64,000 nt of DNA from a virus. The stretch is from the UHGV virus genome UHGV-0072281; one strand, given 5' to 3'. A program made the position numbers and the translations under genes. This document shows positions 1-55,181 of the stretch, piece after piece (positions within the stretch are counted from its first letter, which is position 1; the number at the start of each line of letters is the position of its first letter). Under the pieces are notes generated by a model. It searched no databases, had not been told where the DNA came from, and worked only from the letters and a program-made list of their open reading frames with translations.

Positions 1-44
1 TTAAGAAATACGTAGCTACGGTTAATTAATTTAAGGAGTCTGTC

Positions 45-455
45 ATGAAAACGTTTATCAAAACTTTACTCGTTGCTGTAACTGTTCTGTTCTCTCTTAA
101 CGTAGCAGCAAAAACAGTAAAACTACCGGCGGGTATCAAATACGTCAACAGTACCGATGAATTCTACTGCACAGAAATTGACGGTCTGTATTGCCAGACA
201 AAGAATTTGTTTGAATACAAAGGTAACAGATATGTTTTCGTTGTTGAGCAAGGCGGTGCCTGGTGCTACGACAGCCCTATGTCGGTACTCAACCTGGAAA
301 CTGGGAAAGCACAGAAAATTGAATACAAAGACAACCAATTGTGTTCAGGCGAAAACAAACCGTTCTTCAAAATCAAAAATGGTGTCCCGACTGTAGGTAT
401 TATCGACACTTCTGGAGCACCAATCGTTGTAGCTCAGGACAAACTTAAAATCTAA
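45..455 (+). CDS. small secreted protein (N-terminal signal peptide, 4 Cys), function unknown
   Basis: ORF with AAGGAG RBS upstream; N-terminus MKTFIKTLLVAVTVLFSLNVAA is signal-peptide-like. Confidence 0.5.
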   Translation: MKTFIKTLLVAVTVLFSLNVAAKTVKLPAGIKYVNSTDEFYCTEIDGLYCQTKNLFEYKGNRYVFVVEQGGAWCYDSPMSVLNLETGKAQKIEYKDNQLCSGENKPFFKIKNGVPTVGIIDTSGAPIVVAQDKLKI

Positions 456-465
456 GGAGTAAACC

Positions 466-855
466 ATGCGTCTTATCTGCGCTTTGTTGGCGTTTTTCTC
501 AATCGGAGTTATGGCTTCTACACACATCGACGATTTATTACTTACCCCGGCAACGAACACAGACTATCACTACAACCCACCGGGTTTTGAAGTCTGCGAA
601 GGCGATGCAGGCGAATGCCAAGAAGTTGGCGCAGATGGACGCTATATACTCGTAAAAGCAGACGGAGGAACAACCTGCCCTGCGGGTTATTATTTCGTAC
701 TTGACTCTGTAGCAAAAGAGGTACTTCCTGTAACGACCAAAACGTGTGACCCCACGGTTGTATTAACCCTTGCGAAAAGCAAATCACGTGACCGTCATCT
801 TATCGTCATCGAAGAACGCGGTGAGATGTTAGGCGCTATCGAATTAGATTACTGA
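466..855 (+). CDS. small secreted protein, function unknown
   Basis: RBS TAAGGAG; hydrophobic N-terminus MRLICALLAFFSIGVMAS; terminator hairpin follows. Confidence 0.5.
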   Translation: MRLICALLAFFSIGVMASTHIDDLLLTPATNTDYHYNPPGFEVCEGDAGECQEVGADGRYILVKADGGTTCPAGYYFVLDSVAKEVLPVTTKTCDPTVVLTLAKSKSRDRHLIVIEERGEMLGAIELDY

Positions 856-866
856 TGTGTAGTCTT

Positions 867-905
867 GACCCCGGTTCGTGCCGATTCGTCCGGGGTCCTT
901 TTTAC
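867..905 (+). terminator. rho-independent terminator (gaccccgg...ccggggtc + T-run)
   Basis: inverted repeat followed by CTTTTTA, read from sequence. Confidence 0.5.
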
Positions 906-933
906 GACTTGTTTTACCTAAAGGAGAATTAAA

Positions 934-1410
934 ATGCGTTTGTCTAATGTTTATCAAGCAGCCCAATTCCATCATGAACTGACGGCTAAGCCTGAGTATA
1001 TTCGCCACAACTTAACGGTGGCTTGGAAACTGTTATTGATTGCTGATGCTGCACGACACAACGACCAGGAAACCATTATCAAAACCGTGCGTACTTTACG
1101 CCCTATTGACCTGGAAACAATTTGGTCGTTTGACTTAACTCGAATTTATCATCGTCGCTTTAATGCGGCGGTGGATGCGATACGTCCTTATTTCCACTAT
1201 TTGCAAGCAACATCAGACTGTGGTCCATCCTTAGAGTGGGTCTTGGTACAAAGCGTATGGAGCGATTACATTTATCTCCTATCTTTAGAGACGGGTGAAT
1301 GCATTATCGCTAACGAGGTATTCTCAACCAACGCCGAAATGTATCGTTCCCACGCTACTATCCAGGGTGTCTCACAGCCTATCTTATCACTCACGCACTT
1401 AGGGCTGTGA
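934..1410 (+). CDS. hypothetical protein
   Basis: 158-aa ORF with RBS AAAGGAG; followed by terminator. Confidence 0.5.
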   Translation: MRLSNVYQAAQFHHELTAKPEYIRHNLTVAWKLLLIADAARHNDQETIIKTVRTLRPIDLETIWSFDLTRIYHRRFNAAVDAIRPYFHYLQATSDCGPSLEWVLVQSVWSDYIYLLSLETGECIIANEVFSTNAEMYRSHATIQGVSQPILSLTHLGL

Positions 1411-1418
1411 TTAGCCCG

Positions 1419-1446
1419 GCCCCGCTGTGTACGGGGCTTCTTTTTT
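1419..1446 (+). terminator. rho-independent terminator (gccccg-loop-cggggc + TTCTTTTTT)
   Basis: GC stem plus U-tract read directly. Confidence 0.6.
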
Positions 1447-1464
1447 GCCAAAGGAAACTGAAAC

Positions 1465-2073
1465 ATGAACGAAATTACTTTGGTTCGTTTTATCGAAGCG
1501 ATGCGACTAAACGAAGCTAATCCTCACTCTCCGTTATTCATCGATTTAATGGAGGAAGAAGTCGAAGGGTTCTTAGCGTACCCGCGTTTGAAAGCGTATT
1601 TCGAACGTAAAACACCAACCGCTTACGAGAAGTTGATGTACGCGTTAGACAACCGTACTACGCTGAACACCACACCGTTTAAAGCGCTGGAAGCAATAGA
1701 CCCTACCGGGGGTGCAGGTATCCCACAACGTGTTGTGTTCTACTACATCGACAACGGCCGTATTAAAGCCGACGTTGTAAACTGGATCTCCGAAGGGGAA
1801 ATCCCAGAAACGCGTACTTTTAACCTCTGTCCGGTAGAAGAAGGTTGGGTCGCAGGAACGCATTATTCCTATCCGTATCAAAGCATCAAATCACCTTATC
1901 TGTATCCGGTGTATTTAGATGACGTTACGCCAGGAAAATGTATTCCCGTTACCAATCTGATTTGCTTACTGACGATGGAAGTTGTTGCGTCAGACGCAGG
2001 CCAGGCTTGGGTTGAGCAATCGAAAAATATCCAAAACTGGCAGCAGATGGGTTACAAACTCTACCAGCCGTAA
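1465..2073 (+). CDS. hypothetical protein
   Basis: 202-aa ORF; no recognisable motifs (no Mre11 phosphoesterase motifs). Confidence 0.5.
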   Translation: MNEITLVRFIEAMRLNEANPHSPLFIDLMEEEVEGFLAYPRLKAYFERKTPTAYEKLMYALDNRTTLNTTPFKALEAIDPTGGAGIPQRVVFYYIDNGRIKADVVNWISEGEIPETRTFNLCPVEEGWVAGTHYSYPYQSIKSPYLYPVYLDDVTPGKCIPVTNLICLLTMEVVASDAGQAWVEQSKNIQNWQQMGYKLYQP

Positions 2074-2079
2074 TACCAC

Positions 2080-2121
2080 GAGAGAACCTTCGGGTTCTCT
2101 CCCTTCTCTTTTATTTTTTTT
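2080..2121 (+). terminator. rho-independent terminator (gagagaacc ttcg ggttctctc + long T-run)
   Basis: perfect 9-bp stem, tetraloop, poly-T. Confidence 0.65.
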
Positions 2122-2146
2122 TCTTTTTACACCACGCTCCGTGAAT

Positions 2147-4663
2147 ATGGAGGTGGACATGTTAAAAGTTGAACGTATTGTACTTAAAGGATTTACCGGA
2201 ATGGGGTTACACGAAATCGAAACCTTCGATTTTACTATCCATTCCCCGACCACCATTATCCTCGGTGGTAACGGCTGCGGTAAGACCAGTTTACTGTCCG
2301 TGTTTCTACCTATCGCACCTTCGAAATCCGAATTCCGTGACGGGGGTTCTTACACCAACATCTGTTTGGTTAACGACCATCGTTACAAGTTTAAGGTTGC
2401 GCGTAAAGGCAACTCACTGGTTTGCGATATCGAGAACCTGACGACGGGTACCAAAATCGTCGAACAAGGTAATGCGAAAGTGTATAACTCTCGTGTAGAA
2501 GAAATCACGGGTATTACAAAAGAGATTAAAGAGTTACTGAACGGAGAAGTGCTTTTAACGGATGCAGGAACGGAACTGCGTCGTAAGTGGTTCTACCGTT
2601 TAAGTACGTCAGACTTAACTTACGCGTTAGGTTTTTATCAACGTTTACGAAAAAACCTGACGATGTTAAACGGCGGTGTTGAAATCACCAGCCGCAAGAT
2701 TGCAGAGTTGCGCACTCGCGTGATTGATAACGAGGAAGAACGTCAGCAGTTAGCAACACGGTTAAAAGCATTAGAAGTAGATTTACGTGAACTCAACAAA
2801 CAGATTGAACAACTGCCGGGTCTGAATCGTGACGTTACGGCGGCAACGATTCAATCGCTATTGCTTAAAATCGAAGCACCGATTAATGCTATCTTGGAAC
2901 ACCGTGGCGGATTACCTACGGAAGAACAGGTAGAGGAAGCACGACGCGTTGAAGCCACTGCCCGTGAAGCGGTGGTCTCTGCTGAAACAGAACTGTCCAT
3001 GCTAAACAAAGATTTGTCTTTGTTGATGGACGAGTCTACCCGCCAAGATTACCTGATGCGGAATCACGAGGGGTTAAAGAACACGGTTGCAAAACTGCGT
3101 GAGTTATTAAAGCAGTGGGACACCGAACATCTTTTCCCTGAACTGTTTGCGGAGACCGTTAATATCGACCAGCTTAAAGCAGCGACAGATGCGCGTGTCT
3201 GGGGACAACGTTTAGGAACAACGCTGGATGCTATTAAATCAACGGAACGGTTGAACGTACTGGAAGAGAAACTGTTGACCTTAGACCAAAACTCATCTGG
3301 GTTGCGTGACCGACTACAACGCGTTGAAAACGTATTGCAGAACCTCAACCACGAACGGAATCACTATTTGGAAACCGCCGAGGTTGATTGTCCGCAGTGT
3401 CAATTTAAATTCCGTCCGGGTGTGCGTCGTTCTTTGCCTGAATTGGAAGAAGCCATTCGTGGACAAATGGAGCAACGTAATACGTTACAGACTCAGCTTG
3501 ATTCCGTATTGCGAGACCGTACGGAATTAGAGTCGGACGTTAACTACATGCGTCAAGTACGAGAAATCGTTTTAACGTACTCGAAAGACCCGGTATTGAG
3601 TTTGTTCTTTAAACGTCTCCAGGAGCGGAATGTCTTTACGGATAACCGCAGTCAATTCGGCAGTCTGTGCGCGGAGTTTGATCATGAACTTTATTCCGCA
3701 ATTGAATACCACGAAACGAAACACCGTTTTGCTAAAGCGGAAAAAGAGTGGGCAAACGCAGTTGCAGCGGTAGGTAACGTTGATGGCGCTCTACAGCAGA
3801 AAATTGCCTTCCAGCAGGAGCGTTTGGGTAAGGCGACAGAAACGCTCTCAGAGCGCCGTAGAGAGCACGCAGTTGCTAATGATACCTTTTGTTATCTAAA
3901 CGAACTTAAAGCCACTGTAGACAATTTTAATGCGGTTTTTGAGCGTTTAGAGAACGATGTTAAGGTAACATTAACCAACACAGTGGTCGAAACGTTATTA
4001 AACGCCCGAGAAAACAAGTTGGATGCGTTCACCACAGCACGGGAACGGTACCGTCAGATGGAAAACGAACTCAACCAACTTACTGCGTTAGAAAAGGAGT
4101 TATCGGATTTACAAGCGCAGCAATTCAATAACAAACTGATGATTCAAGCGTTCTCGCCCGAGAAAGGGGTATTACGCAAATACTTCTACAACGCTATCGT
4201 GAGAATCACAGAATTAATGACGCGGTATATCGAACAAGTCTGGACCTACCCTATGCGGGTCATGCCGTGTGACTTAACCGACGGTGACTTAGACTACACG
4301 TTCCCAGTGCAGTTAAAAACCCATCCTGAACCGGTACCTGACGTGCGGAAAGGGTCGAAAGCGCAGCGGGCCATCTTTAATTTGATGTTTCGTTTAACCG
4401 CTTACAAAGCCCTGAAACTTCATCAGTATCCGCTACTGTTGGATGAACCGTCAGAAGGGATGGATGAGGAACACCGAAATAACCTCGTCGGGTTTATTAA
4501 AACCCTGGCGAATTCCGGTGAGTTCTCTCAGTTACTGGTGGTATCTCACGAAGCAGAAATTCATTCAAAACTTAACGAAGCCGCATACTGTGTTATTGAA
4601 CCTGAAGGTATAACACTGCCTGCGGTATACAACGAGGGAGTAAAAATTGTCTACGCAAACTGA
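2147..4663 (+). CDS. Rad50/SbcC-like SMC-family recombination ATPase (T4 gp46-like)
   Basis: Walker A GGNGCGKTSLL near N-terminus; long coiled-coil-like middle with CPQC zinc-hook motif (~3389-3400); C-terminal Walker B/D-loop LLLDEPSEGMD. ORF track start 1982 rejected: it overlaps the upstream terminator; in-frame ATG at 2147 or 2159 preferred. Confidence 0.75.
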   Translation: MEVDMLKVERIVLKGFTGMGLHEIETFDFTIHSPTTIILGGNGCGKTSLLSVFLPIAPSKSEFRDGGSYTNICLVNDHRYKFKVARKGNSLVCDIENLTTGTKIVEQGNAKVYNSRVEEITGITKEIKELLNGEVLLTDAGTELRRKWFYRLSTSDLTYALGFYQRLRKNLTMLNGGVEITSRKIAELRTRVIDNEEERQQLATRLKALEVDLRELNKQIEQLPGLNRDVTAATIQSLLLKIEAPINAILEHRGGLPTEEQVEEARRVEATAREAVVSAETELSMLNKDLSLLMDESTRQDYLMRNHEGLKNTVAKLRELLKQWDTEHLFPELFAETVNIDQLKAATDARVWGQRLGTTLDAIKSTERLNVLEEKLLTLDQNSSGLRDRLQRVENVLQNLNHERNHYLETAEVDCPQCQFKFRPGVRRSLPELEEAIRGQMEQRNTLQTQLDSVLRDRTELESDVNYMRQVREIVLTYSKDPVLSLFFKRLQERNVFTDNRSQFGSLCAEFDHELYSAIEYHETKHRFAKAEKEWANAVAAVGNVDGALQQKIAFQQERLGKATETLSERRREHAVANDTFCYLNELKATVDNFNAVFERLENDVKVTLTNTVVETLLNARENKLDAFTTARERYRQMENELNQLTALEKELSDLQAQQFNNKLMIQAFSPEKGVLRKYFYNAIVRITELMTRYIEQVWTYPMRVMPCDLTDGDLDYTFPVQLKTHPEPVPDVRKGSKAQRAIFNLMFRLTAYKALKLHQYPLLLDEPSEGMDEEHRNNLVGFIKTLANSGEFSQLLVVSHEAEIHSKLNEAAYCVIEPEGITLPAVYNEGVKIVYAN

Positions 4664-4847
4664 TTGGTGGCGTCAGTTACTAAGCGTTTTAGGCTTTAGC
4701 GTCATGGTGCTGGTTGCCATTCTGTACGTGCTATTTTGTATAACGGCGATTTTATGGGTGGTCTTAGCGTACGCGATTAGGCTCACCTGGGGTTCAATTT
4801 GGCACCAACGCGAATGTGAGTGGCGGTGTGTTGGAGGGAAGTCATGA
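4647..4847 (+). CDS. small membrane protein (66 aa, TTG start)
   Basis: hydrophobic core VLGFSVMVLVAILYVLFCITAILWVVLAYAI; GAGGGAG RBS; overlaps end of upstream gene. Confidence 0.35.
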   Translation: MSTQTDWWRQLLSVLGFSVMVLVAILYVLFCITAILWVVLAYAIRLTWGSIWHQRECEWRCVGGKS

Positions 4848-4954
4848 TTGAGGGTATTCTGTTAACACTTGGGTCGTTGTGGATTATTGGGAAATCCCTC
4901 AACTGGCTGATTAAAAAGCACGGATGGGCTTTCAAAGGCTCTACGTACAGTTAA
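4844..4954 (+). CDS. tiny membrane peptide (36 aa)
   Basis: hand-translated MIEGILLTLGSLWIIGKSLNWLIKKHGWAFKGSTYS; GGAGGG RBS 5 nt upstream; not in ORF track (too short). Confidence 0.25.
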   Translation: MIEGILLTLGSLWIIGKSLNWLIKKHGWAFKGSTYS

Positions 4955-4960
4955 GTTAGA

Positions 4961-4993
4961 ACCCCCTCCTGGGTAACTGGGAGGGTGTTTTAC
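4961..4993 (+). terminator. hairpin terminator (ccctcc...ggaggg + TTTTAC)
   Basis: inverted repeat read from sequence. Confidence 0.4.
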
Positions 4994-5005
4994 GAGGGAA
5001 GAACT

Positions 5006-5134
5006 ATGACTGTTGTCAATACTACCAATGCTGCAATCGGCGCTTTATATAACGCGGAACTAACATGGGGTGCGGGTTTTATTACCGTACTGCTTCTCGC
5101 CGCAGCCGCTTTTATCATTGGACGTTGGTTTTAA
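5006..5134 (+). CDS. tiny membrane peptide (42 aa)
   Basis: hand-translated MTVVNTTNAAIGALYNAELTWGAGFITVLLLAAAAFIIGRWF; GAGGGAA RBS. Confidence 0.25.
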   Translation: MTVVNTTNAAIGALYNAELTWGAGFITVLLLAAAAFIIGRWF

Positions 5135-5166
5135 TTTCATCTTTTTGCGTCTGTAAGGTCTGATAA

Positions 5167-5610
5167 ATGGAAATTTATTTGTTGAACGCACATTCTAAAA
5201 TCGGTGAGCAGCAAGCGAAAGATTTACTCGCACTCCATTACCGTTACTTAGATCACCAAGCAACGATGCTGAAAATCAAAACCGCTGTACCGAAATTAAA
5301 CGTGCGTCAACTGATCGAAGGCAACTGTGTTGTTCTGATTTATATCGACGATGTTGCGGTGGGTTATTGCAGTTACCGTAATCGCAACGGGGTACTCAAA
5401 ATTCGTTCGTTATACGTGCTGCCCGATTACCGTCAGCGTGGGGTAATGAAAGAAATCTTCAAAGCGATAGCCACTGATGAAACATTCGGTGAAATTGCAA
5501 TTGGGATGTACACGAAGTGCAAAGAAGCGAAAGAGTATTTCATTCGTCGTGGCTACAAAGCAACCTATTCTCACGATAAAGAATGGGTGGAATTCAGTAA
5601 AACTTTCTAA
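5167..5610 (+). CDS. GNAT-family N-acetyltransferase (putative)
   Basis: motif-A-like YVLPDYRQRGVMKEIF after a beta-strand-like VGYCSY segment; size 147 aa typical for GNAT. Confidence 0.5.
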   Translation: MEIYLLNAHSKIGEQQAKDLLALHYRYLDHQATMLKIKTAVPKLNVRQLIEGNCVVLIYIDDVAVGYCSYRNRNGVLKIRSLYVLPDYRQRGVMKEIFKAIATDETFGEIAIGMYTKCKEAKEYFIRRGYKATYSHDKEWVEFSKTF

Positions 5611-5676
5611 AACAATAAAGGCTCTCTTGACGTTCCTCACTATGAGTGTGAGAATTTTACGTCAGGAGAGCTACTT

Positions 5677-5913
5677 ATGTTAAACAGTTTCGGTGTAGGT
5701 GGAATGGATACAAGCATTTGCTGGAAAGAATACGAACGTGCAAATGCATTTCTCCAGCATCCCAACGTGGGTAAGATCGGTCAGGTGTGTTTTGGTAAAC
5801 CTGCACTGACAGCCTGTATTCAAGGTGCGTTAGGAACGCTGCCACCTGAATCACCTTTCGAGCCTAAGGAGAATCCAGATGTTACCAGGAACCCAAACCC
5901 CGTATCTATTTAG
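5677..5913 (+). CDS. hypothetical small protein
   Basis: 78-aa ORF; overlaps next ORF. Confidence 0.3.
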   Translation: MLNSFGVGGMDTSICWKEYERANAFLQHPNVGKIGQVCFGKPALTACIQGALGTLPPESPFEPKENPDVTRNPNPVSI

Positions 5914-6253
5914 TGAACCACTGGATAACAGCGACATCTTACAAATCTGTTATCAGTGTCACGAAATCGGTGGTAGTGAACTTACGCGGGTTAATAAACT
6001 GCTGTGGCTGATTCCAGAAATCGAATTACCGTTCGTTAAACCGAGTTTGTGGCGTCGTGGTGCGTGTCGCGAAGCGTATATGCTGTCAAAGTTTAACATT
6101 AATCTGGAGAAGGTCTGGGAGAAGATGAACGACGGCCAAACCAGAGAACAGATTACTCACACGCTGGAATTGCACCTTGCCATGAAACGCCTCGGTCTCG
6201 AACACGAAGGACTGGAGTCCGTTATCAGTCAATGGGTGAAAAGGAATCGTTAA
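5879..6253 (+). CDS. hypothetical protein
   Basis: 124-aa ORF, start uncertain. Confidence 0.4.
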   Translation: MLPGTQTPYLFSEPLDNSDILQICYQCHEIGGSELTRVNKLLWLIPEIELPFVKPSLWRRGACREAYMLSKFNINLEKVWEKMNDGQTREQITHTLELHLAMKRLGLEHEGLESVISQWVKRNR

Positions 6254-6326
6254 TGTCTAAAACGTATATAGCGATTTTGGTTGAGTTGGCGATTGGTGGA
6301 ACGCGGTTTATCCCTGTGCATCAATT

Positions 6327-6851
6327 ATGCTTACCTCACTCGGTAAGACCGTTATGCTAACGATACTTCCAGAATCGGTTATTGACAACGACCTGTTTAA
6401 CGCCCCTGAGCGCTTCAAGGTCGTTACGATAAATTGTGTAGGGGCAATGGGTCGGGGTATCGCTTTAGCGTGCAGAGAACGCTATCCTGGGCTTTATCAG
6501 GACTACCGAGAACGTTGCTTCGCTAACGAGATACGAATAGGGAATGTGTACGTTTATCCCGAGGAAAACTGCATTCTCTTACCAACTAAAACACATTGGA
6601 AACTGAAATCCCAGGTTTCTTATGTTATCGCGGGTATCACCGCGTTGGCAGATGCCGCAGAAAACTTAGAGGGTGGGGTGGCTTTACCGCCGTTAGGGAT
6701 GGCCAACGGTTGGTTGACAAAAGCTGAATGTCAACAAATCTTTTTGTTTATCGAAAAGAAACTCGTACCGAGGAGACAACAATACTGTTTCTATTTACCT
6801 GATCCGCTTTACCAAGAAGCAAAACCTTTAATTCCAAACCTTTTTAAATAG
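6327..6851 (+). CDS. macrodomain protein, TARG1/DarG-like (ADP-ribose-processing hydrolase)
   Basis: NDLFNAP...INCVGAMGRGIALA...LLPTKTHWKLK...LPPLGMANGW matches, from memory, the TARG1/DarG pattern GDLF..P...MGAGIA...ITKK..HK...MPRIGCGLD; alternative in-frame start at 6354. Confidence 0.6.
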   Translation: MLTSLGKTVMLTILPESVIDNDLFNAPERFKVVTINCVGAMGRGIALACRERYPGLYQDYRERCFANEIRIGNVYVYPEENCILLPTKTHWKLKSQVSYVIAGITALADAAENLEGGVALPPLGMANGWLTKAECQQIFLFIEKKLVPRRQQYCFYLPDPLYQEAKPLIPNLFK

Positions 6852-6858
6852 ATATTAT
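6849..6858 (+). promoter_or_regulatory. recurring motif TAGATATTAT (copy 1), candidate phage promoter element
   Basis: same 10-mer at 16321-16330 and near-identical CAGATATTAT at 25421-25430, each just upstream of a gene start. Confidence 0.2.
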
Positions 6859-6951
6859 CATTAGGGCACACAACAAAGGAGTACCAGCTGTCCGCGCCGT
6901 GATTTCGTTCTACGGAATACGGAAATGTATAAATCCAACTGGAGAACTAGT

Positions 6952-7638
6952 ATGTTTCGTATCTTCTTTCTTTTACTGGTAACACTTTTCGCGTTTAACG
7001 CATACGCATCCAAATCCGCGCCCAGTACCAAACACCATCGTGAATTCGAAATGATTCAAGACCGTTTCGAACGGGTAAAACCGTTGATTGTGGAAATCTC
7101 TCGAAAGCAGGGTGTTGATCCTAATTTGATGACCACGCTAATCTATCGAGAGTCACGGTTTAATCCGAAAGCGTATAATCGAACGTCTAAAGCGCACAGT
7201 CTGGTTCAGATGCTGCCGAGCACAAAGCGTAATTTGCTAAAACTCTACGGTGCCGAAATCGGACTTAGCCGCAATGCAGATTTGTACAATCCTCGTAATG
7301 CGGTGCTATTGGCTTCCGTCTACGTTAAACATTTAGAAAAGGGGTTAACTAAACGACTCAAACGCAAGCCCACTATTGCAGAAATAGCATTGGCTTATCA
7401 CTGGGGTGAAAGCGGTGCACACGCCAGGATTAAAAGCAAGTCTCGGGCAGCACAACGAGAAATGGCGAGCTTTATGAAAGATGCAACGTTCTACAGTGCA
7501 AAAATCAACAAGCCTGTAGCATCTCGTCAGCTTGCGTTTGCGAAGAAACCAGAACGCCAGATTCAGTTAGCAGAAGTTAACCGAATTTGGGATACGATAA
7601 ACACCAGTTTTCCATTTAAACAAGGAGTCACCCTTTGA
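6952..7638 (+). CDS. secreted soluble lytic transglycosylase (SLT-domain, endolysin-like)
   Basis: signal-peptide-like MFRIFFLLLVTLFAFNAYAS; SLT-like motifs ESRFNPKA...SKAHSLVQMLPST; start moved to 6952 (GGAG RBS) instead of 6925. Confidence 0.55.
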   Translation: MFRIFFLLLVTLFAFNAYASKSAPSTKHHREFEMIQDRFERVKPLIVEISRKQGVDPNLMTTLIYRESRFNPKAYNRTSKAHSLVQMLPSTKRNLLKLYGAEIGLSRNADLYNPRNAVLLASVYVKHLEKGLTKRLKRKPTIAEIALAYHWGESGAHARIKSKSRAAQREMASFMKDATFYSAKINKPVASRQLAFAKKPERQIQLAEVNRIWDTINTSFPFKQGVTL

Positions 7639-8144
7639 GCATCGTTGTAACCGATTGGTATAAAGGTATCACTAAGGCTACCCAAATTACTGCCCAGGAC
7701 GTGTACAGTATCGTTCGTAGCAGTAGCGAAGACCAGATAAAGTCCGACGAAGACTTTGCAACGCGTCATGAGTTTTACGATGCCCTTAAAACGGCTTTCG
7801 GTGATGACGAAGAAGAAGGCTTAGAGTTTGACTGGAACGTCAACCTTGCCTTGTTGTGGATTTGCGGATTACGTCCGAGTGTGAAAGACACGGAGCAAGG
7901 GAAAGTTCTGTTGTGGCACTACACCGGTAAATACAATCCGAACCAGGTCTTTAAAGAAGCGTATATGGAAGCCACTGTAGAGTTACAGAATCTGCTGTTG
8001 GGTGAGAACACCTACTGTCAACGCAGCTTCCTGACGATTCTGGAGAAACTGGCGTCTACACACAAAATCTGGCGTCAGGCAGATGCCCCTGAACACATCT
8101 TCGTTCTGGAATTTGCTGTGATTCCAAACCAGCCGTTCTTTTAA
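7635..8144 (+). CDS. hypothetical protein
   Basis: 169-aa ORF overlapping upstream stop by 4 nt (coupled). Confidence 0.5.
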   Translation: MSIVVTDWYKGITKATQITAQDVYSIVRSSSEDQIKSDEDFATRHEFYDALKTAFGDDEEEGLEFDWNVNLALLWICGLRPSVKDTEQGKVLLWHYTGKYNPNQVFKEAYMEATVELQNLLLGENTYCQRSFLTILEKLASTHKIWRQADAPEHIFVLEFAVIPNQPFF

Positions 8145-13406: not shown

Positions 13407-14141
13407 ATGACATACCCGAAAACGATTCAACCCACCTTACCGACGCTGGTAATTGGTGCTGACGCAGAAACCAAATCACTGCGTCCTGATGCGTATTTGT
13501 TAACCACAGGCTTAGTTGCCTTTGACGTACCGACTTTAAAAATGGTAGGGTCGTCGTATATGCGTATTGATCCTAACGACCCTAAAGCAAAAGCTGTGTT
13601 CCACGAAGACCCGCAAACCGTGGGGTGGTGGGAAGGTAAAGGAGAACCTGAATACGCACCGTCTCGTGAAGCCTACACGGAAGCATGGGGTGGTACAACT
13701 CCTATGCCGGAAGCGCTGTGGGCAATGCGGAAGTGGTTAGACGAAATCACCGGCAAACACAATTTCGTTATTACCATGCGTGGGCCAGATTTCGATTCTC
13801 CAATTTTCATGAACGCGTTCGCACAATGTGACGTCCCTCCAGGTAAGTTCCGTAAGTTTAGTGCGTTAGACAGCGACCGCACCGCAGAGCGTTTAGCGCT
13901 GGCGTTTGGTTTTGAGCCTGACTTGACCGTTGAGCAAGTTTACTGGACGCGGGGTAAACCGGCATTTGAACACCATGCTTTGTGGGACGCTGCGAAAGAA
14001 GCGTACACCACCGCACGTATTTATCACCTTGCACTGATTACCCGCGAGTATGGGTACGAACGTGCTAAAGCCTGTCACGAAGAACTGAAAACCGGTGAGT
14101 ATATTCCACCACAGATTCGTGATCAGTTAACCAGGGATTAA
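13407..14141 (+). CDS. DnaQ-like DEDDh 3'-5' exonuclease
   Basis: Exo I-like LVIGADAET, Exo II-like GPDFDSPIF, Exo III HHALWDA (H-x-A-x-x-D). Confidence 0.55.
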   Translation: MTYPKTIQPTLPTLVIGADAETKSLRPDAYLLTTGLVAFDVPTLKMVGSSYMRIDPNDPKAKAVFHEDPQTVGWWEGKGEPEYAPSREAYTEAWGGTTPMPEALWAMRKWLDEITGKHNFVITMRGPDFDSPIFMNAFAQCDVPPGKFRKFSALDSDRTAERLALAFGFEPDLTVEQVYWTRGKPAFEHHALWDAAKEAYTTARIYHLALITREYGYERAKACHEELKTGEYIPPQIRDQLTRD

Positions 14142-14143
14142 GA

Positions 14144-15655
14144 ATGAAGAACGTTGATGTTGCTGTACTTTATACCGACGGTAGCCATTTAACCTCACCG
14201 ATGGGAACAGGCGGTGGGATTCACGGCTACCTGTTTAACAAGGAAGAGATTGTTGACGGTGGCGTTTATCGCCACCCTACCATTCCCGAAGGGATTACGA
14301 CCTCTGGTTATCGTCAGATTAACAAAGAGGAAAAACTTCCTGCGTTACCAGACTCCGTTGAGTTTGTGGACTGCGTTATTCCAGTACCGAAACACCACCA
14401 CTCCGATGTTGCAGAGATTGTTGCTTTTTTAACCGTTTTCGAAAAAGCACCATTCGTTGCAAAAAACTACGTTATCTATATCGACGCGTCTTACGTTGTG
14501 AATACGTTTAACGATTGGATTGACGGTTGGGCTAAGCGGGACTGGCGACGGGCTGATGGAACCCCTATCGCGAACCTTGAGCTGGTTCAACGGATGTGGG
14601 AAATTAAGAAACGTCTGAAGAGAGAAGGGAAAGGGATTCGTGTTCTTAAAATCAAAGGACACTCTGGTCACTACGGTAACGAACGAGCTGACGGGCTGGC
14701 ACGAAAAGGATCATCCATCTCTGCGCACGGAGAAGGTTTAGATTATCAGGCGTACTGGTCAGCAGATGAAATCCCGGAAGAACAGCAGGAAGAAATCGTC
14801 AGTGAAGGCGTTAACGTTGCCGCGTTTCCTGATATTTGCGTAACTAAGTTCTGTTACCCGATGGTAAATGAGCAGCACCCTACAGTTAAAGTAAACGGTG
14901 AAAATCTCTATTACATGTTCGGGGGTAACCACGCAAAACAGAAGGACGATATTGTCTTCGTTGGGAAATACATTCCTGATGCGCAGTTTTGTGTGATGTT
15001 TACACGTGAGCCGTGGACGAACGTTTACGATTTGGTTAACACCCACGCTGCTAAAGCCTGGGAGGGCGTACCACGTTTGCGTCAGTTTGACCCTATCGCT
15101 GTTGTGTTCAACCTGTTCGTAAAACGTAAGAAGTTTGCGGAAGCAGCGGCTAACGGTATCCCGGTTGACAAAATGCACTTTAGCGAAGACAAAAACCTGT
15201 GGATGTACGAAGACTTGTCTATCAGTCGTATTCTGCGTCCCGCGTTATTGTCATACCGCTGCGTAACCATTCGTGATGAACTGGCAGAGTGGCTGCGTGA
15301 CTGTTTGGAAGGCAAATCGAACGTTGTCTTAAATGACATTACCGATTTGCTTTATGACGAAAAAGGTAAACCCACCAAAGACTTTTACCGAAACGTGGAT
15401 AAAGGGTTTGACGTTTCCATTAAAATTCCTAACGGGAAGGTTGACGTTAAAACTATTCTGACGCGTGCTATCGACATACCGACACGTACGGAAATCAACC
15501 GTATTAAAGAACCAAACGGGCGATTCTACATTGCTGTACGTCGTCCAGAACGTCAGTATATTGAATACGCGTTAGTGTATATCGGTGAGAAGTATCATGG
15601 TCTGTGGTGTGGTTATTATTCAAACAAACGAATATTGACCGATAAGGAACTTTGA
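14144..15655 (+). CDS. RNase HI-like domain (N-terminal ~190 aa) fused to ~300-aa domain of unknown function
   Basis: LYTDGS (Asp), AEIVAF (Glu), IDASYVV (Asp), KGHSGHYGNERADGLA matches RNase HI KGHAGHPENERCDELA. Confidence 0.65.
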   Translation: MKNVDVAVLYTDGSHLTSPMGTGGGIHGYLFNKEEIVDGGVYRHPTIPEGITTSGYRQINKEEKLPALPDSVEFVDCVIPVPKHHHSDVAEIVAFLTVFEKAPFVAKNYVIYIDASYVVNTFNDWIDGWAKRDWRRADGTPIANLELVQRMWEIKKRLKREGKGIRVLKIKGHSGHYGNERADGLARKGSSISAHGEGLDYQAYWSADEIPEEQQEEIVSEGVNVAAFPDICVTKFCYPMVNEQHPTVKVNGENLYYMFGGNHAKQKDDIVFVGKYIPDAQFCVMFTREPWTNVYDLVNTHAAKAWEGVPRLRQFDPIAVVFNLFVKRKKFAEAAANGIPVDKMHFSEDKNLWMYEDLSISRILRPALLSYRCVTIRDELAEWLRDCLEGKSNVVLNDITDLLYDEKGKPTKDFYRNVDKGFDVSIKIPNGKVDVKTILTRAIDIPTRTEINRIKEPNGRFYIAVRRPERQYIEYALVYIGEKYHGLWCGYYSNKRILTDKEL

Positions 15656-21765: not shown

Positions 21766-23262
21766 ATGGCAGGCCCAACTAAGCAAGTTATCGGTGAAGT
21801 AATTCGTCCTCGTTTTAACGTTTATACCATCATGGACCACGCCTTAGGCAACTACGAAAGAGGCGAAGATGGTTTATACTACCTTAACGGTGGTTTTGCC
21901 CACATCATGGGTTTCGCGGGTCGTGGTAACACCTTCAAATCCACACTGTTGGATTTCTGTATCTTCCAAATCCTGCAACGCTATAAAGCAGAGTGGGGTT
22001 CGAAATACGATACCGAAGTGTCTGCTGCCCTCGATCGCTTAGAGACCGGTTATATTTCTGCCATGCACGCCAACGGTATTGACGATGGAACTTCGGTACT
22101 GGAACTTATTCACGAAGGTCGTTATAACCTCGTTGGTTCTGACGTGATGCCCGGGGAACAGTATTACAGTGACTATATTCGTGATGAAGTGGAAAAACGC
22201 TTCAAGCAGTATATGTCTGGTAAAACGCGTGTAACGCCGTTCCTTGACCCGGTTCGTCGTAAGCAAAAAGAAATCCTTGACCCGTGGCTGTATTCTATCG
22301 ACTCCCTGTCGGAGTGGCACTCGTCTTCTCTGGAAGACAAGCACGCTAAAACGGATATCGGTGATTCCGATCAGAACATCCTCAACGCCCACGACGCCTT
22401 ACAGAAATCGAACATGATGAGCCGTTGGCCGTCTGCGTTTGCCCGTGGTGGTTTCTACATGGGCTTTGTTGCACAGATGGCCGATGACTCCGGTAAGGCG
22501 ATGGCGGGCGGTCGTCAAGGGCAGAAAGCAAACGCGAAACTGCTGGACGATGCGAACGACGATCTCAAATTCGCAGGGATTCCTCGTCGTCAGTTAAGCT
22601 TCCTGACTAACTCGTTTATTGTTGCGACAAAATCAGGCGAGCTGAAAAAAGACCAGAGTTATAACGCCCAGACCGGTGTTAACGAAGAACTTTACCCAAC
22701 CGCACGTTCAAAAGCCATGAACGCATCGGTTAACGACCTGAAAGTTATCACCTTTACGCAGTACCGTGCTAAAGGTGGACACACGGGTGTGAAGTTCCAG
22801 ATGATCTTCTCGCAAGAGATGGGTCTACTGTACCACCTGAGCCTGTGGCATTACCTGAGTGACACTCTGAAAAAATCCGAATTTGGATTTACATCCAGCG
22901 GTAGCGGTGGTTCCATTAAAGAACTCCAGATTCTTCCTGGAGTTAAATTCCAGCGTACGACGATTCGCGACATGATCGACGATAACCCGAAACTGCGTCG
23001 GGCGTTAGAAATCACGGCCGCGATTGCGTACATGCAGAACAACTACCATCGTTTAGAGGTTAAATACCACCTCACGATGGAAGAAATCTACAAACTCATT
23101 GATGAAAAATGGGATTGGAATGAGATTCTGGAGAACACCGTAGAATACTGGATGTTTAAAGACCAAGAAACGAAAGGTGGTAAACGCACGTTAACTGCCC
23201 GTACGATTCTGGGTATGGTCGTGGACGGCCTGGAACCGAAGTTCCTCACCAAAAAGAAATAA
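21766..23262 (+). CDS. UvsX/RecA-like recombinase (divergent)
   Basis: unusual P-loop FAGRGNTFKS parallels T4 UvsX AGPSKSFKS (recalled); Walker-B-like LYSIDSLS; DIGDSD and AMAGGRQ parallel RecA EIGDSHMG and UvsX MGGGTG. Confidence 0.6.
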   Translation: MAGPTKQVIGEVIRPRFNVYTIMDHALGNYERGEDGLYYLNGGFAHIMGFAGRGNTFKSTLLDFCIFQILQRYKAEWGSKYDTEVSAALDRLETGYISAMHANGIDDGTSVLELIHEGRYNLVGSDVMPGEQYYSDYIRDEVEKRFKQYMSGKTRVTPFLDPVRRKQKEILDPWLYSIDSLSEWHSSSLEDKHAKTDIGDSDQNILNAHDALQKSNMMSRWPSAFARGGFYMGFVAQMADDSGKAMAGGRQGQKANAKLLDDANDDLKFAGIPRRQLSFLTNSFIVATKSGELKKDQSYNAQTGVNEELYPTARSKAMNASVNDLKVITFTQYRAKGGHTGVKFQMIFSQEMGLLYHLSLWHYLSDTLKKSEFGFTSSGSGGSIKELQILPGVKFQRTTIRDMIDDNPKLRRALEITAAIAYMQNNYHRLEVKYHLTMEEIYKLIDEKWDWNEILENTVEYWMFKDQETKGGKRTLTARTILGMVVDGLEPKFLTKKK

Positions 23263-38204: not shown

Positions 38205-41200
38205 TTAACCCGCACGTCTAACGTTAAGCTGTCGTGCTGGCTGTTCAACGGACATTTGTCGTGATGCTGAGCCTGCTGGTGCCATAGGTTGGGTCGATAC
38301 GGTGTTTTGTACCGGCTGCGGACGTTGTTTAAGAATCGTGACAATCTCTCTGAGATACCCCGCCGATTCTTTCGCAACAGCCAACTGCTGGACACTAATC
38401 GGATCACCGCTACTGAGTGTAGGCCCGTTTTGTGCATCAGAAGTAACCGCAGGTGCCGGTTTACTCGTTGCTGCTACGCGCTGCACAGCGCCTTCTTTCA
38501 CCTTCTCGACATCTTCTTCAGGCAACCCTTCGTTTCTAGCTCCAGCCGCAACGGTCTCCGCAATCGTAGAGGCGTCGCCGCCAGCACTACTACCGCCAGG
38601 TGACGGTACTGCCGGACCACCACTGGTTGCAGCTTTGACATTGTCTGCACCCATCGCACCTTTCTCTGCTAACGCATCGTCACGACGCGCAGCATTCGAT
38701 GCGGGCAAGTTATCCGTCGCTCCAGAAATTGATGGATCGTTAGCTGCTCCTGCTGCTACCGCTGGAGAGGAGGCAACCGCAGGCGTTAGCCCTTTCACCA
38801 TGTCTTTCGTTGAAGCTGGGTTAGCCGCAATTTCGTTTGTCGCCACAGCACCCATACGGCGGTTCAGTTCATTAATAACTTCGCCAACAGTACGAATACG
38901 AACAATCTGTTCGCCTCGCATTTCGTAGAAGACTCCCTTATTACCTCTAAGGATTTGAGGAGTAATACCTTCTGCTTTGTCGGCTGGCATGTTCGGATTC
39001 TGCCGCCATGCATTAAGGAACTTCTTACCACCGCCTGGACCCAAGAAGTGATACAGATACGCAACAGCCGGGGGCGGTTCTACACCACCCAGGTCTTTCT
39101 GCGCCTGCATGATATTATCACGAATAAACTGTACCCCGAGGATGGTATTTGCCCACGGGTCATACTGGTTTACTTGCGGAATACCGTACCGACGAGAATA
39201 CCCCTTCATCATTCCAGACCACGTACTGTCGATGAACTGGAACAACCCTGCTGCTGACGCACCTGGGTTCTTGACGCCGTATCTGAAACCAGATTCAGCT
39301 TTCGCCATCGCAATCGCAATCGCAGGCGGAACACCTAAGGTATTTGCGACATCTGCAATCATTGCTTTAACGCCTTCTACGTTAGGTGTCTTACCACTAC
39401 CCAGTTTACTGATTGGATATTTCTCAGCCAAGGTTTTGTAATCACCTTCTTTGACGTCCCCGAGTTTAATCCCGGATTGGCCCGTAGAGAACTTCGCGTA
39501 ATTGCTGATCCCCATCTCACCCACAACTTGAGATAAGTCACCCGGTGTACCGTAAGACGACCCACCGTTTGGCAAGTACCCATCGTTAGACGCTGTACCC
39601 CAATCAACGACACCTTTAAAGCGTTCTTTGCCATCTTCGTCGGTTTGGTACATTCTCGTCGCACGATCGGCTTTCTGCCACTTCGCACGTTTACCTGCTG
39701 CGGGAGTAGAGCGCAGGGTGTTACGAACAGCCAGGTCAGGTTCTTTTGACAGTTCTTTCAGGTTGGCAAGTTCAGTAGCAACAGAACCTGCATCAGTGTT
39801 TGCTTCCTCGCCTAGCGGGTTGAATGGAATCTCCCACACGGACTGTCGAATACCGCCCTTCATGTTGTAAGCGCCACGAATCATCAACGCCAATTCGTAC
39901 ATGAACCCACCGGATACTTTCAATTCGGTAGGGTCTGCTTGCGGAATGTAACGTTTCAGACCAACGACGTAGGTCATATACGCCGGTAAGAAACGGTTGT
40001 AGAACCAGTTCTTACAACGCTCCTCTTTAGGACCACCTATCAAGTCAGGCGAGATAACCGCAATGGCTTCTTTCCAGTTGCCTTTATAGGTACAGTTCTT
40101 CACATCAATGTCTTTCAACACGTTCTTCTCTAACAACGTGAAAAGATTACGCGTTGTTTGGTTGATAGTAACCGCACCGTAGGTTTTCCACCTGACCGAT
40201 TCCAGGTCTTCCAAATCGCTTTTCTTCGGTAATGAATGCCAGTCAACTTGGATTTGAACCTGCTCAGTCCCGTCTTCCCATCCTTCAACCTTCGCAACTT
40301 TCTCGTTACGTTCAGCATCCGCATTCGCCAATACCTGACTGGTTTCAGCAACGGACGCAATTTTGTGGCCTTCGACAGCGTCACGCATACCTGAACGTTG
40401 TTTCCGTTTGTCGTCAGTACGCATGTTGATTGACCGCCACACACGTTCCTGTGCTTCGACAACCTCTTCCCCTGACAAGAACTCTGCCGGAGTAAAGGTA
40501 ACGAAATCCCACGCTTTAGAGAACCAACCCTGGTTAACTTTACGCGGGTCAGTCAACGAACGGAATTCCGCAGAATCTTTACCCATCTTCATTTTGTTGT
40601 AGAGGGTAATCATATCCGCTTTCGACACTTTCTTCGGATCACCAACATCTGCCAAAGCGATATCGTTATCCATAGACTTCAGTGCTGAAATCCAACGGAG
40701 GTAAATCGGTGCGAAACGTTGTAACATAAACGCAGTAAATGCTAACATCTCACCACGTTCTTCCAAGTTTACACCAAACCCTTCTGCGAGTTTCTTCACG
40801 TCTTCGGAAGACAAGCCACGTAATTGTGCTTCACCCCCTTCGGTATACGAGACGTAAGGTTTCAAAGCGTCTTCTAAATAACGGGCTTTCATACCGTCTT
40901 CAGAAGACCACTGGTCGTAGTCACGGAAACCGTATTGTGCCAGACGCATATAGTCGAGGTACTGCGCTTTCACACGGGTAGCGCATTTATACGCCCAATA
41001 ACCCAGACCAGCGGCAGTCGCACCGATCACAATTGCAGGCCAACCCACCGCAGCTACCACCGTAGATGCAGCCGAGGCTACCGCAGTCACCGCCGGAACC
41101 GCTAAACGCTGTACGGCAAACTTACCAACATTCCACGCTGCTTTACCGAGGAACCCGGTAGGTTTAAAAATACCCCACTTCGCAACTTTACCCAGTATGG

Positions 41201-44200
41201 AACCCACCGTACCTAAGATACTCACGATTGGTCCTACCAACGGTAGCCCTTTGAGGAAGTCCATCACCCCGCCTTTACGTCCTTTCTGTTCGGCGGATTT
41301 CTTGGCTTTCTCTTCTTCCTTAGAACGTCTACGACGACGGAAGAATTGGAAGTAGTCGCGTTTTTCATCATTGGCTGCCGGTTTGTTACGTTGTCCGAAC
41401 TTACTGAACATCGTACGAATCAAGCCATCAGGCGCACCAGCACGTTCCGCAGAGTCGCGCATGGTGTTAAACCAGGACATTTCCTGGAGGTTAACCATCC
41501 GGTTTAAACGTTCCAGTAATGCTGAACCAACACTTTTCGCTTTCTGCTTACCTTTGTTGATAACGCGTCCTGCGCTATCCGTTGCGGTTTCGAAATCCTC
41601 TTTCGCTGCGTTAATCACGCGTGTTGGAGAAACCTTACCACGGGCGTATAAGTGTTGACGGTAAAACTCAGCAACGTCATCGTCACGGCCTGCTAAACGA
41701 GACTCCGTCCGATAGCGAGTACCGATATCGTAGCGTGGATCGCGGAAGCTATCTACCGTTTCGCCAAAGCGTCCACGGAAACGGTCAAACCAGCCTTTAC
41801 CCGCAGCACCCCAACGAGACAGTCTATCACCAACTCCCTGACGGAAACGTGAGAATCGGTCACGTTGTCTGCCTCGCCAATCCCGGAAATTCTGGAAATA
41901 GTCTTTAAACCCGTCGCGGAAATCCTTAACGCGGTTAAGCATCCCTTTGATAGATTTCGACCCAACGTTTTTCTCCAGTTGCTCCGTCCAGGATTCATCT
42001 TCAGGCTCACCATCTAAACGACGGTTAAGGAGTTTATAGATGCGAATCAGGATATGGTTGGTCTTACGGCCATTCGACCAGGAGAACATGCTGAAACCGC
42101 CGCCAGAACCCCCATCCTTACGATTCTGCCACCACCGGGTAAGCGGGTTGTCGGTCGCTAACTCTTTGAATTTCTCAAAGCCACGTTTTGCATTGTTCCA
42201 CAAACGAGCGGGCATTCCCGTTACACGGGAAATCATGCTTTGTAAACGTGTTTTCTCACTGCCTTCAGGAATCTCGTTAAGCCACTCACGTGCTTTCTCG
42301 AAGATAGACGCTGCTCTTGGTGAGATTAGACCAATAAGTTTCTTCGGTAAGTTAACGGCTTTGTTTACCGCTGTACCTGCTTTACCGGAGATATACTGGA
42401 ACAGGGCCTGGAGTTTACCGCCTTTATAGAAGCGCAGTTTACCCGCAGCCGCTAAGTCCGCCGCTGCGAGAATCAAGTTCCCGGCTTCGTCAACAATATC
42501 ACGACCCAGCTTAATGTCGTCTAACGAGCTGAGTTGTACCAGCTTGTTGGTTTTAGGGTCAGCCTGATAATACTCACCTGCCTCTAAACGGCTTCCTTGT
42601 AAAACAACATTGCCTTTCTCGTCGTAGATGTCTCGAACACCAAGAACGCCTTTCCCGAACGCTACTGCTGAATTCCAGCCTGTGGACAGCGTACCAGTAA
42701 CTAAACCTTTCAGTCGTTCAAAAACACCTGGACCGTCAGAAGACCCACCGGAGAATTTCCCACGGATAAAACTGCCCAGTGACTGTAAACGCCCTTTCCC
42801 TCTCAGGAACATGTTCTTCGCAAAACGACCAGCGCCCGTACCGGTGTCCCAAAGTACACCCGCCCAACGACGGAACAGCCCACTTTCACCAAGCACAATG
42901 CGCTTACGTTTGCGTTTGTTACCGGTACTACCCGCGTCTTCAGATGCGTCACCCTCACCGTCACGACCACCACCTAAGCTTGCCAACAGAATACCTTCTT
43001 CATCCATGTTCTTGACATGTTTCAGAATTTCCTGCACGGTGTTGGATTCGGATTTGTTACGGATAGCATCAACGATTCTATCAAACTGTTGCTCTAAACC
43101 CGCATTAGTGTCAGGCCGTTCGCTTAACAGTTCAACAAAGTTGGTGGATTTTTCACCGTAGAGGACAGCAGCAAGTTGTCGTGCTGACAGCCCACGGCCA
43201 CCACGTCCACCTTTACCTTTAACGGTGTCAATAGTCGACTCGTCACCGGTTACGGAAGCGTCTACACCCAAACGACGTAAGTAGTCACCTAGCGCAGAAC
43301 CGTTTTTCAGTTTGCGCTGGATTTCTTGCTCACGGGTTAACGAACGACCAGAGCGAGTTTTCCCCATGGCCAGGTCGTTGTATAGCGTATACGGATCGTT
43401 AATGTCTTTATCTACATCAAACCGATCGTTCTTCGCATCGTACTTAAAGATACCTGCGTCACGTAACGCATTCTCGCCGTAGATAATTGAGGCTTCGTCT
43501 ACCGTGTTTTGACGTGCACGAATTGTTGACTGAATAGCTGAAATCTTACCAGCAATCTCGTTGCTCAGTTCGTGATGACCGCCTGCCAGTTCTGAAGACC
43601 GTGCTTCTAAGACCGCCTGAATCGCTTCTACCGCGTTCGCATTCATGTAACGATACATGTGCATCGGGTCTTTCAGCAGACTGCCTACGTCGAATGCCTT
43701 ACCTTCAGACGCACGGGATTCGATATAGTCCGCCAGCGCCTGGCGAGTTTTCGAATCCAGAGTTTTGTCTTTGTCGATAAAGTCAACGGTTTCGTTAATG
43801 TACTGCTGTAAACGTTTACGCTGTTCGTCATTAGCAACTGCCTTACGTACGCGATTGCCAATAACTTTACGATCCACCATACCTCGCGTGGTCAGGTCAT
43901 AAACCTGATCGTGGTGTTCGCCATATCCACGACGAATAGATTTGTTAATCTCCGTCAGCAAGGTCGGGATGACTTCCGTGATGCTAAGATATGCTTTACG
44001 GTCGAACTTCGCTGCTGCTGATAACGCCTCTGCTGAACGTTCTTCTAAAGCTAATCCCTCACGACGCAGCGGTGTCACTAACCCCATCTCGTGCATTAAA
44101 CGGAAGACAGTGGCCAATGGACCATCTATCTCACCAGCAATCGCTGAGTTAGAGATAGAAGATAAGTTACCGAACCCGTAGCGTGCCAACTGAAGCCGTT

Positions 44201-54542: not shown

Positions 54543-55181
54543 ATGGCTGATAATGTCGAACCTTCGCTGGTAAAGTGGTTGGAGCAACAGTTGCCACGTA
54601 CCGCGAAAAAAGTTTCGTTGAAAAAACTGGATACTGCTCCACTCCATATCAGCGATAAAAAAATCCCGGTCTTTACGCCCAGGATTCCTCATAGCGTTTA
54701 CAGCGACGAAGACAAAACGGTTCCCCGTATTTGTTGTTCAGTCGATTTAGAAAAATGTTTGCGCGGCGTTCGACGTTACTTCGTACCGAGTCCTTATGAG
54801 GACATGAGACACCGTTACTATCTTCATGCATTTGATGAGCGTGACGTTGTTCAACCATCGGTAGAACTCTCAAGTGAACCTTTCCGTGCGAACGAGGTTT
54901 GGATTGTTCCACATCGTTTATCGAACTGGGAAATCAAACCCTCCGTTATCGGTGAGTTGCGCCTAGTTCGATTAGCAGATAACGGATATAAACACACACT
55001 CGCTGTTGCATTACACGAAGACGTTCGTCTAAACAGTAACCAGCTGTTAAAGGCAGGTAAGTTTTACGAAATCACGGTGACTATCTCTGAACGGGAACCG
55101 TTGATTGTTGTTAGTGATGCGGTAGAAATCTCGCGTGGTATTTTTGACGCTGCGTTAAACGAATACACTGTAACTCCATAA
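54543..55181 (+). CDS. hypothetical protein
   Basis: 212-aa ORF. Confidence 0.5.
   Translation: MADNVEPSLVKWLEQQLPRTAKKVSLKKLDTAPLHISDKKIPVFTPRIPHSVYSDEDKTVPRICCSVDLEKCLRGVRRYFVPSPYEDMRHRYYLHAFDERDVVQPSVELSSEPFRANEVWIVPHRLSNWEIKPSVIGELRLVRLADNGYKHTLAVALHEDVRLNSNQLLKAGKFYEITVTISEREPLIVVSDAVEISRGIFDAALNEYTVTP

Follow-up and report, generated by a model that had tools for sequence, protein, structure and literature searches.

In phages related to phiKZ and SPN3US, the two subunits of an SbcCD-like complex are encoded at distant sites: the SbcC and SbcD genes of SPN3US and of phiKZ relatives have been described as "drastically separated" (Thomas et al. 2016; PMC5105663), and this separation is the normal, published and thus already known gene order of phiKZ-like phages. 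Other functionally linked genes, those for the RNA polymerase (RNAP) subunits included, are also scattered in phiKZ-like genomes, and the SbcC-like protein of SPN3US, gp186, is essential, its amber mutants being lethal (PMC5105663). The corresponding gene of phiKZ, phiKZ165, belongs to the core genes and shows a phenotype on knock-down (PMC12571901), no transposon insertions are tolerated in it (PMC12676376), and the SbcC-SbcD pair is practically universal in jumbo phages (Iyer et al. 2021; PMC7824862). Here we describe the gene for an SbcC/Rad50-like ATPase, hereafter SbcC, in a 64,000-nucleotide stretch of virus genome UHGV-0072281 (“the window”). We consider it very likely that this ATPase is the SbcC of an SbcCD-like complex in a jumbo phage of the Chimalliviridae, and that the canonical SbcD, a homolog of SPN3US gp27 and phiKZ gp65, is encoded about 86 kb downstream. 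An earlier note on the window had implied that an ATPase gene without an adjacent nuclease gene was an oddity; set beside the published gene order, it is the rule.

The ATPase gene is one unbroken open reading frame (ORF) ending at position 4663, and the open frame 1982-4663 encloses the frame 2147-4663 to which the earlier note referred. The gene and its motifs are listed below, with residue numbers that follow the 838-amino-acid version of the protein starting at 2147.

2159-4663, + strand: coding sequence of the SbcC/Rad50-like ABC ATPase, 834 amino acids, homolog of SPN3US gp186 and phiKZ gp165
2149-2153, + strand: GGAGG Shine-Dalgarno sequence, 5 nucleotides before the ATG at 2159, read directly off the sequence
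2264-2287, + strand: Walker A P-loop, GGNGCGKT, residues 40-47
3389-3400, + strand: CPQC zinc-hook motif, C415-P-Q-C418, at the midpoint of the protein
4352-4366, + strand: divergent ABC signature, G-S-K-A-Q
4433-4465, + strand: Walker B (LLLDE, residues 763-767) and D-loop (SEGMD, residues 769-773)
4544-4549, + strand: H-loop, S800-H801

Assignment to the SbcC/Rad50 family was obtained by several routes. In the PHROG database, the ORF matched phrog_77, annotated as “SbcC-like subunit of palindrome specific endonuclease” (E = 4e-91). When a profile of 18 homologs was searched against the PDB, the top matches were Rad50 ATPase heads (3qku, from P. furiosus, E = 2.6e-7); the ABC head is split into N- and C-lobes, and both lobes of the P. 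furiosus protein (PfRad50) aligned with the ATPase. The Pfam family SMC_N (PF02463), which is precomputed for nearly all of the homologs, gave a split match over residues 8-812, covering profile positions 2-208 of 220 (E = 1.3e-8; 35 bits, with a cut-off of 40). By tblastn, SbcC is 69% identical to gp207 of Erwinia phage Asesino, the nearest isolate phage by this protein, and 57% identical to gp186 of Salmonella phage SPN3US, while phiKZ gp165 can be aligned with it from end to end (24% identity, E = 2e-65). At the nucleotide level, a megablast search of window positions 1-8000 against the phage collection returned no match, and the phage is not among the isolates of that collection.

The true start of the gene is probably the ATG at 2159, 12 nucleotides downstream of the start at 2147 given in the earlier note. 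We prefer it because a GGAGG lies at the appropriate site, because the homologs all begin with MLKVERI, and because most public gene calls for this protein are of 834 amino acids.

Conservation of the motifs was scored in an alignment of the 18 homologs, which are 38-87% identical. The Walker A, CPQC and Walker B/D-loop motifs, all of which the earlier note had recognized, are intact, and their key residues are invariant in this alignment. Within the P-loop, G40, N42, G43, G45 and K46 do not vary; in the Walker B and D-loop segment, which aligns with LILDEPTPYLD of PfRad50, the same is true of L765, D766, E767, P768 and D773; and the H-loop, likewise aligned to PfRad50, is invariant. At the hook, C415, P416 and C418 are accompanied by invariant F422, P424 and G425, and the adjoining arm is poorly conserved. 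Because the hook is invariant in the 18 homologs, is retained as CPSC in phiKZ gp165 despite the low overall identity, and lies in a protein with only nine cysteines in total, we do not regard CPQC as a chance CxxC. The residues from about 100 to 650 are poor in proline and glycine and consist to 50-60% of E, K, R, Q, L and A, which describes composition only. The ABC signature is divergent: S737 and Q740 are invariant, the latter aligning with the glutamate of SGGE in PfRad50, and both glycines of SGG(Q/E) are replaced, the two positions being occupied across the clade by K, T or A and by A or G, respectively. SPN3US gp186 has the same motif set and a long inter-lobe region, with a small transmembrane ORF downstream of its gene (PMC5105663). 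Judged from its sequence, the gene at 2159-4663 is thus predicted to encode an intact SbcC/Rad50-like ATPase.

The searches of the window for a partner nuclease were uniformly negative. A tblastn search of the 64 kb with the SbcD of SPN3US (gp27) gave no match (best E = 2.5), and a hidden Markov model (HMM) of the SbcD family, built from 26 sequences, reached at most 6.6 bits (E = 0.12) among the 669 six-frame window ORFs of at least 40 amino acids, compared with 557 bits for the positive control. The clade-specific HMM was used for exclusion because the Pfam family Metallophos is insensitive to this SbcD clade, giving 15 bits for SPN3US gp27; Metallophos itself matched none of the scanned window ORFs of at least 100 amino acids. 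The earlier note had found no Mre11-type nuclease near the ATPase, in agreement with these results, and had named an SbcD gene just upstream of the window as a finding that would count against it; the 7.9 kb upstream of the window in the source contig carry none. By these homology searches, no recognizable Mre11/SbcD-like nuclease is encoded in the window.

The contig from which the window derives (JGI 3300045988, Ga0495776_071432) is 200,862 bp long and carries SbcC at 130,161-132,677. From the same metagenome sample comes a sibling genome of 224,831 bp, IMGVR_UViG_3300045988_078609, in which a 99% identical SbcC is encoded at 130,793-133,306 and the flanks share 97.8% nucleotide identity over 7,660 bp (window positions 1-7660). 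This sibling encodes an SbcD at 43,661-44,839, on the same strand as SbcC, whose stop codon lies 85,954 bp upstream. The last gene of the window (62072-62977) has a counterpart with 100% protein identity at a collinear position in the sibling (73,907-74,809), and the sibling SbcD lies 29,970 bp past the start of that counterpart; the interval from SbcC to this gene is about 1.4 kb longer in the window than in the sibling. By synteny, SbcD would be expected to start near window coordinate 92,000, a position that overshoots the window by about 28 kb and the source contig by about 19 kb. The contig is evidently incomplete, being about 24 kb shorter than its siblings of approximately 225 kb, and the missing part is the site at which SbcD is expected. 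SbcD cannot be placed on the source contig because the contig ends short of the expected position. A scan of metagenomes with the SbcD alignment yielded 11 loci, the source contig not being among them, and look-ups of exact protein matches to three SbcD homologs (P0007, P0003 and P0004) pointed to other samples and not to the source contig.

The sibling SbcD is an intact ORF of 382 amino acids, 99.7% identical to the representative of its protein cluster (P0004). It matched phrog_100, “SbcD-like”, in the PHROG database (E = 8e-63), and in a profile search it aligned along the whole of T. maritima Mre11 (3qg5_C, E = 4e-9), its C-terminal helices corresponding to the Rad50-binding region of that protein. 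An AlphaFold2 (AF2) model of the sibling protein (pLDDT 92) had as its best Foldseek match E. coli SbcD from the SbcCD head complex (7yzo_A, E = 4.5e-14); T. maritima Mre11 (3thn; TM-score 0.73 normalized to the target and 0.61 to the query) and then bacterial, human and archaeal Mre11 proteins were among the further matches. The model thus predicts an Mre11 fold, with a nuclease domain, a capping domain and the C-terminal helices. In the numbering of P0004, the phosphoesterase residues of motif I (D22 and H24), motif II (G57 and D58), motif IV (H180) and motif V (H212 and H214) show little or no variation in 26 sequences. Motif III reads G97-T-P-S100-H101-D102 and is invariant in these 26 phiKZ-like sequences; relative to G-N-H-D, the histidine and aspartate are retained, the metal-ligand asparagine is replaced by serine, and two residues are inserted in comparison with T. 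maritima Mre11.

The same arrangement recurs throughout the relatives of this phage. Homologs of SbcC were found in 288 records of the phage collection and homologs of SbcD in 290, with nearly identical counts by genus, and no genome checked has the two genes near each other. In SPN3US-like genomes, SbcD lies about 86-95 kb downstream of SbcC on the same strand. The gene positions are 21,020 (SbcC) and 168,891 (SbcD) in SPN3US and 21,690 and 170,896 in Asesino, the separation is about 93 kb in pEa_SNUABM_29, and in two further IMG/VR genomes SbcD is about 86-87 kb downstream of SbcC. In phiKZ, ORF65 (SbcD) at 55,066 and ORF165 (SbcC) at 169,093 are 113 kb apart. All the relatives examined and, most closely, the sibling genome bear out the suggestion in the earlier note of a partner encoded elsewhere.

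Some observations weigh against assigning the ATPase to an SbcCD-like complex with a distant SbcD. The Pfam SMC_N score of the ATPase is below the gathering threshold. SbcD was seen in the same-sample sibling and not on the source contig, so that SbcD is deduced for this exact strain from a genome that is 97.8% identical around SbcC. That SbcC physically interacts with SbcD, binds zinc, forms a coiled coil and acts in recombination is inferred by analogy. Finally, the enzymatic details may differ from those of the model complexes, as SbcC has SKAQ in place of SGGQ/E in the signature and SbcD has GTPSHD in place of GNHD in motif III. Both deviations are family-wide in phiKZ-like phages and are not peculiar to this locus.

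On the paradigm of Mre11-Rad50, SbcCD and T4 gp46/47, the N- and C-terminal halves of SbcC would form a single ABC ATPase head, and the roughly 600 residues between them would double back into an antiparallel coiled coil that has the CPQC hook at its apex. The hook of Rad50/SbcC proteins links two protomers through a shared Zn2+ ion, and two protomers of the phage SbcC would meet both at such a zinc hook and at ATP-sandwiched heads. A dimer of SbcD would then dock through its C-terminal helices onto the base of the coiled coil. If it works like T4 gp46/47, the complex would resect DNA ends in an ATP-dependent manner and so feed a UvsX-like recombinase, for which the window contains a gene at 21766-23262 (phrog_97). 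The output would be recombination-dependent replication and repair, presumably within the phage nucleus.

The immediate surroundings of SbcC bear on other explanations of its isolation, and their features are as follows.

1465-2073, + strand: conserved upstream ORF, 202 amino acids, phrog_9964, not Mre11/SbcD
2080-2127, + strand: terminator-like hairpin with a 9-bp stem, a TTCG loop and a following T-rich run, between the upstream ORF and SbcC (consensus match only)
4647-4847, + strand: small hydrophobic ORF, 66 amino acids, TTG start, overlapping the 3' end of SbcC by 17 nucleotides, counterpart of SPN3US gp187
4844-4954, + strand: second small hydrophobic ORF, 36 amino acids, joined to the preceding ORF by an ATGA overlap
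4964-4985, + strand: terminator-like hairpin of 9 pairs, 6 of them GC, followed by TGTTTT, closing the unit of SbcC and the small ORFs

The first small ORF matched phrog_16515 (E = 5e-6), has a KD19 value of 2.93 and is conserved in Asesino, in SPLA3 and in the clade with 87% identity. Counterparts of the second, of the form MIEGI.LT...GWAF.G, occur in Asesino, in SPLA3 (SPN3US-like) and in L039, a member of the 87%-identity clade. Counterparts of the small ORFs were not found beside phiKZ165. A third small hydrophobic ORF, of 42 amino acids, also follows SbcC, so that three lie within 4647-5134, the first two of them ahead of the hairpin at 4964-4985. The hairpins are termed terminator-like only, as the count of such sites is not above the shuffled expectation, and a scan for sigma-70 promoters was uninformative, these phages using their own RNA polymerases.

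One could suppose that SbcC acts without any nuclease, as an SMC-like tether or organizer of DNA in the phage nucleus, perhaps anchored by the small hydrophobic proteins encoded downstream, and that the separation of the genes reflects an uncoupling from SbcD. The arm of SbcC exceeds the arm of T4 gp46 by about 300 residues (PMC5105663), the operon-like unit of SbcC and the two small ORFs is kept in SPN3US-like and Erskinevirus phages, and in a screen of phiKZ with antisense oligonucleotides (ASOs) gene 065, encoding the nuclease, and gene 165 differed in strength of phenotype (PMC12571901), all of which would fit such a role. We nevertheless hold it to be very unlikely, given that the SbcC and SbcD genes strictly co-occur, that the hook and, apart from the divergent signature, the ATPase motifs are preserved as they are in bona fide Rad50/SbcC proteins, that the small ORFs are absent beside phiKZ165, and that the scattering of related genes is general in such genomes, extending to the RNAP subunits (PMC5105663). 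The same unit invites a narrower and somewhat speculative proposal, which we think improbable: in SPN3US-like and Erskinevirus-like phages, SbcC might share a discrete transcription unit, bracketed by terminator-like hairpins, with two small hydrophobic proteins that are translationally coupled, and these might anchor the complex that processes DNA ends at a membrane or at the boundary of the phage nucleus. If so, the localization or role of SbcC would be partly independent of the distant SbcD, whose motif III is atypical.

A different nuclease, in place of Mre11/SbcD, was the alternative raised by the earlier note, which pointed to the “DnaQ” exonuclease at 13407. The ORF in question (13407-14141) encodes a DEDD-type, Rv2179c-like 3'-5' exonuclease (Pfam E = 3e-12; phrog_255), for which the DnaQ-like label is fair as regards the fold, and it lies directly upstream of a phiKZ155-like gene for an RNase-H-domain protein (14144-15655) that could be proposed in the same capacity. 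Both nuclease-fold genes are on the strand of SbcC and about 9-10 kb downstream of it, and SbcC adjoins SbcD in no relative; yet a canonical SbcD accompanies SbcC in essentially all records as well as in the sibling genome, and the C-terminal helices of that SbcD align with a Rad50-binding region. The DEDD exonuclease, moreover, shows no linkage or co-variation with SbcC and was dropped as an unsupported candidate, while the homolog of the RNase-H-domain protein in phiKZ has an essential, nuclease-independent role of its own (PMC12571901). Because the canonical SbcD is present in this genome type, no substitute nuclease is needed, and we regard one as extremely unlikely. There is virtually no likelihood, finally, that the upstream ORF at 1465-2073 is itself a highly diverged Mre11-type nuclease, a possibility that the earlier note had entertained as a finding that would count against it. 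This ORF is the conserved immediate neighbor of SbcC in SPN3US-like and Erskinevirus phages, but its product has only two histidines and none of the five phosphoesterase motifs (D-x-H, GD, GNHD and GHxH were searched for), and among nine homologs no aspartate and a single histidine are invariant. It gave no Pfam match above noise and no fold match in the PDB, to metallophosphoesterases or otherwise (best E = 0.12); a terminator-like hairpin separates it from SbcC, and its counterpart is not adjacent to phiKZ165. The missing motifs, the lack of an invariant aspartate and the lack of a PDB fold match rule it out as an Mre11. Its AF2 model (pLDDT 73) found structural matches only to uncharacterized jumbo-phage proteins in BFVD, for example one of Erwinia phage Kwan. 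The reading that we retain is thus that of an SbcC whose canonical partner is encoded at a distance.

The remaining gene content fits this phage type. Window genes of phiKZ-like character include those for PhiKZ_VTX, a Peptidase_S80 prohead protease, the tail sheath and tube, and an RNAP beta subunit. Erskinevirus and Seoulvirus, the genera of Asesino and SPN3US, are members of the Chimalliviridae, and the window comes from a jumbo phage of that family, of the phiKZ/SPN3US/Asesino type. On the 3' side of SbcC are accessory genes for a GNAT acetyltransferase (5167-5610), a macro-domain or Appr-1-p-processing-like protein (6327-6851) and an SLT lytic transglycosylase (6925-7638), and the gene order over 5167-7638 matches that of Asesino and SPN3US. 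The RNase-H-domain protein at 14144-15655 has 503 amino acids and is 25% identical to phiKZ155 (E = 7e-33), which is reported to be essential for phiKZ replication through a nuclease-independent function (PMC12571901). On the opposite strand, an ORF at 38205-45338 encodes 2377 amino acids with an SLT domain near residue 2000 and resembles the tail-associated lysin of the phiKZ181 type. Contigs of about 223-229 kb from the same clade are present in whole-genome shotgun (WGS) assemblies (CYGL01000001.1, QZLY01000003.1, SKEP01000003.1 and JACXXQ010000002.1), and clade proteins (P0169 and P0171) are named as hypothetical proteins of Salmonella enterica; from these two observations, the host is probably Salmonella. 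In sequenced isolates the phage may be maintained, for instance in a carrier state.

The finding is of little consequence except for correct annotation. It illustrates how a subunit can look like an “orphan” within 64 kb of sequence when its partner is simply distant, as is usual in phiKZ-like genomes. Three questions already raised in the literature for SPN3US and phiKZ are not peculiar to this locus: (i) where SbcCD is sited relative to the phage nucleus, (ii) what the conserved small hydrophobic ORFs do, and (iii) whether the enzymology is altered by the divergence of the signature and of motif III.

Compared with known systems, the phage pair shares with E. coli SbcCD and with archaeal and eukaryotic Mre11-Rad50 a split ABC head, a central CxxC hook and a partner with the Mre11 fold. 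It departs from them in its signature and motif III and, unlike E. coli, in which a single sbcDC operon encodes both subunits, in the position of its genes. T4 gp46/gp47 is likewise a phage pair of the Rad50/Mre11 type; these proteins are essential and feed recombination-dependent replication via UvsX (PMC5105663), and a UvsX-like recombinase is also encoded in the window. The T4 genes are clustered, however, unlike those of the window phage type; gp46, at about 560 amino acids, has the shorter arm noted above, and T4 and SPN3US proteins share no BLASTP similarity (PMC5105663). The closest systems are SPN3US gp186/gp27 and phiKZ gp165/gp65, the core SbcCD-like pair of the Chimalliviridae, to which the window SbcC is orthologous over its full length, with the same motifs including the CPxC hook. 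These phages share with the window phage type the habit of encoding SbcC and SbcD on one strand at a distance of about 90-150 kb; SPN3US has the same small hydrophobic downstream ORF (gp187), and both SPN3US and Asesino have the same conserved upstream neighbor. The genome type of the window has about 225 kb in place of 240-246 kb, and its sequence has diverged from those of these phages, with nothing different in kind.

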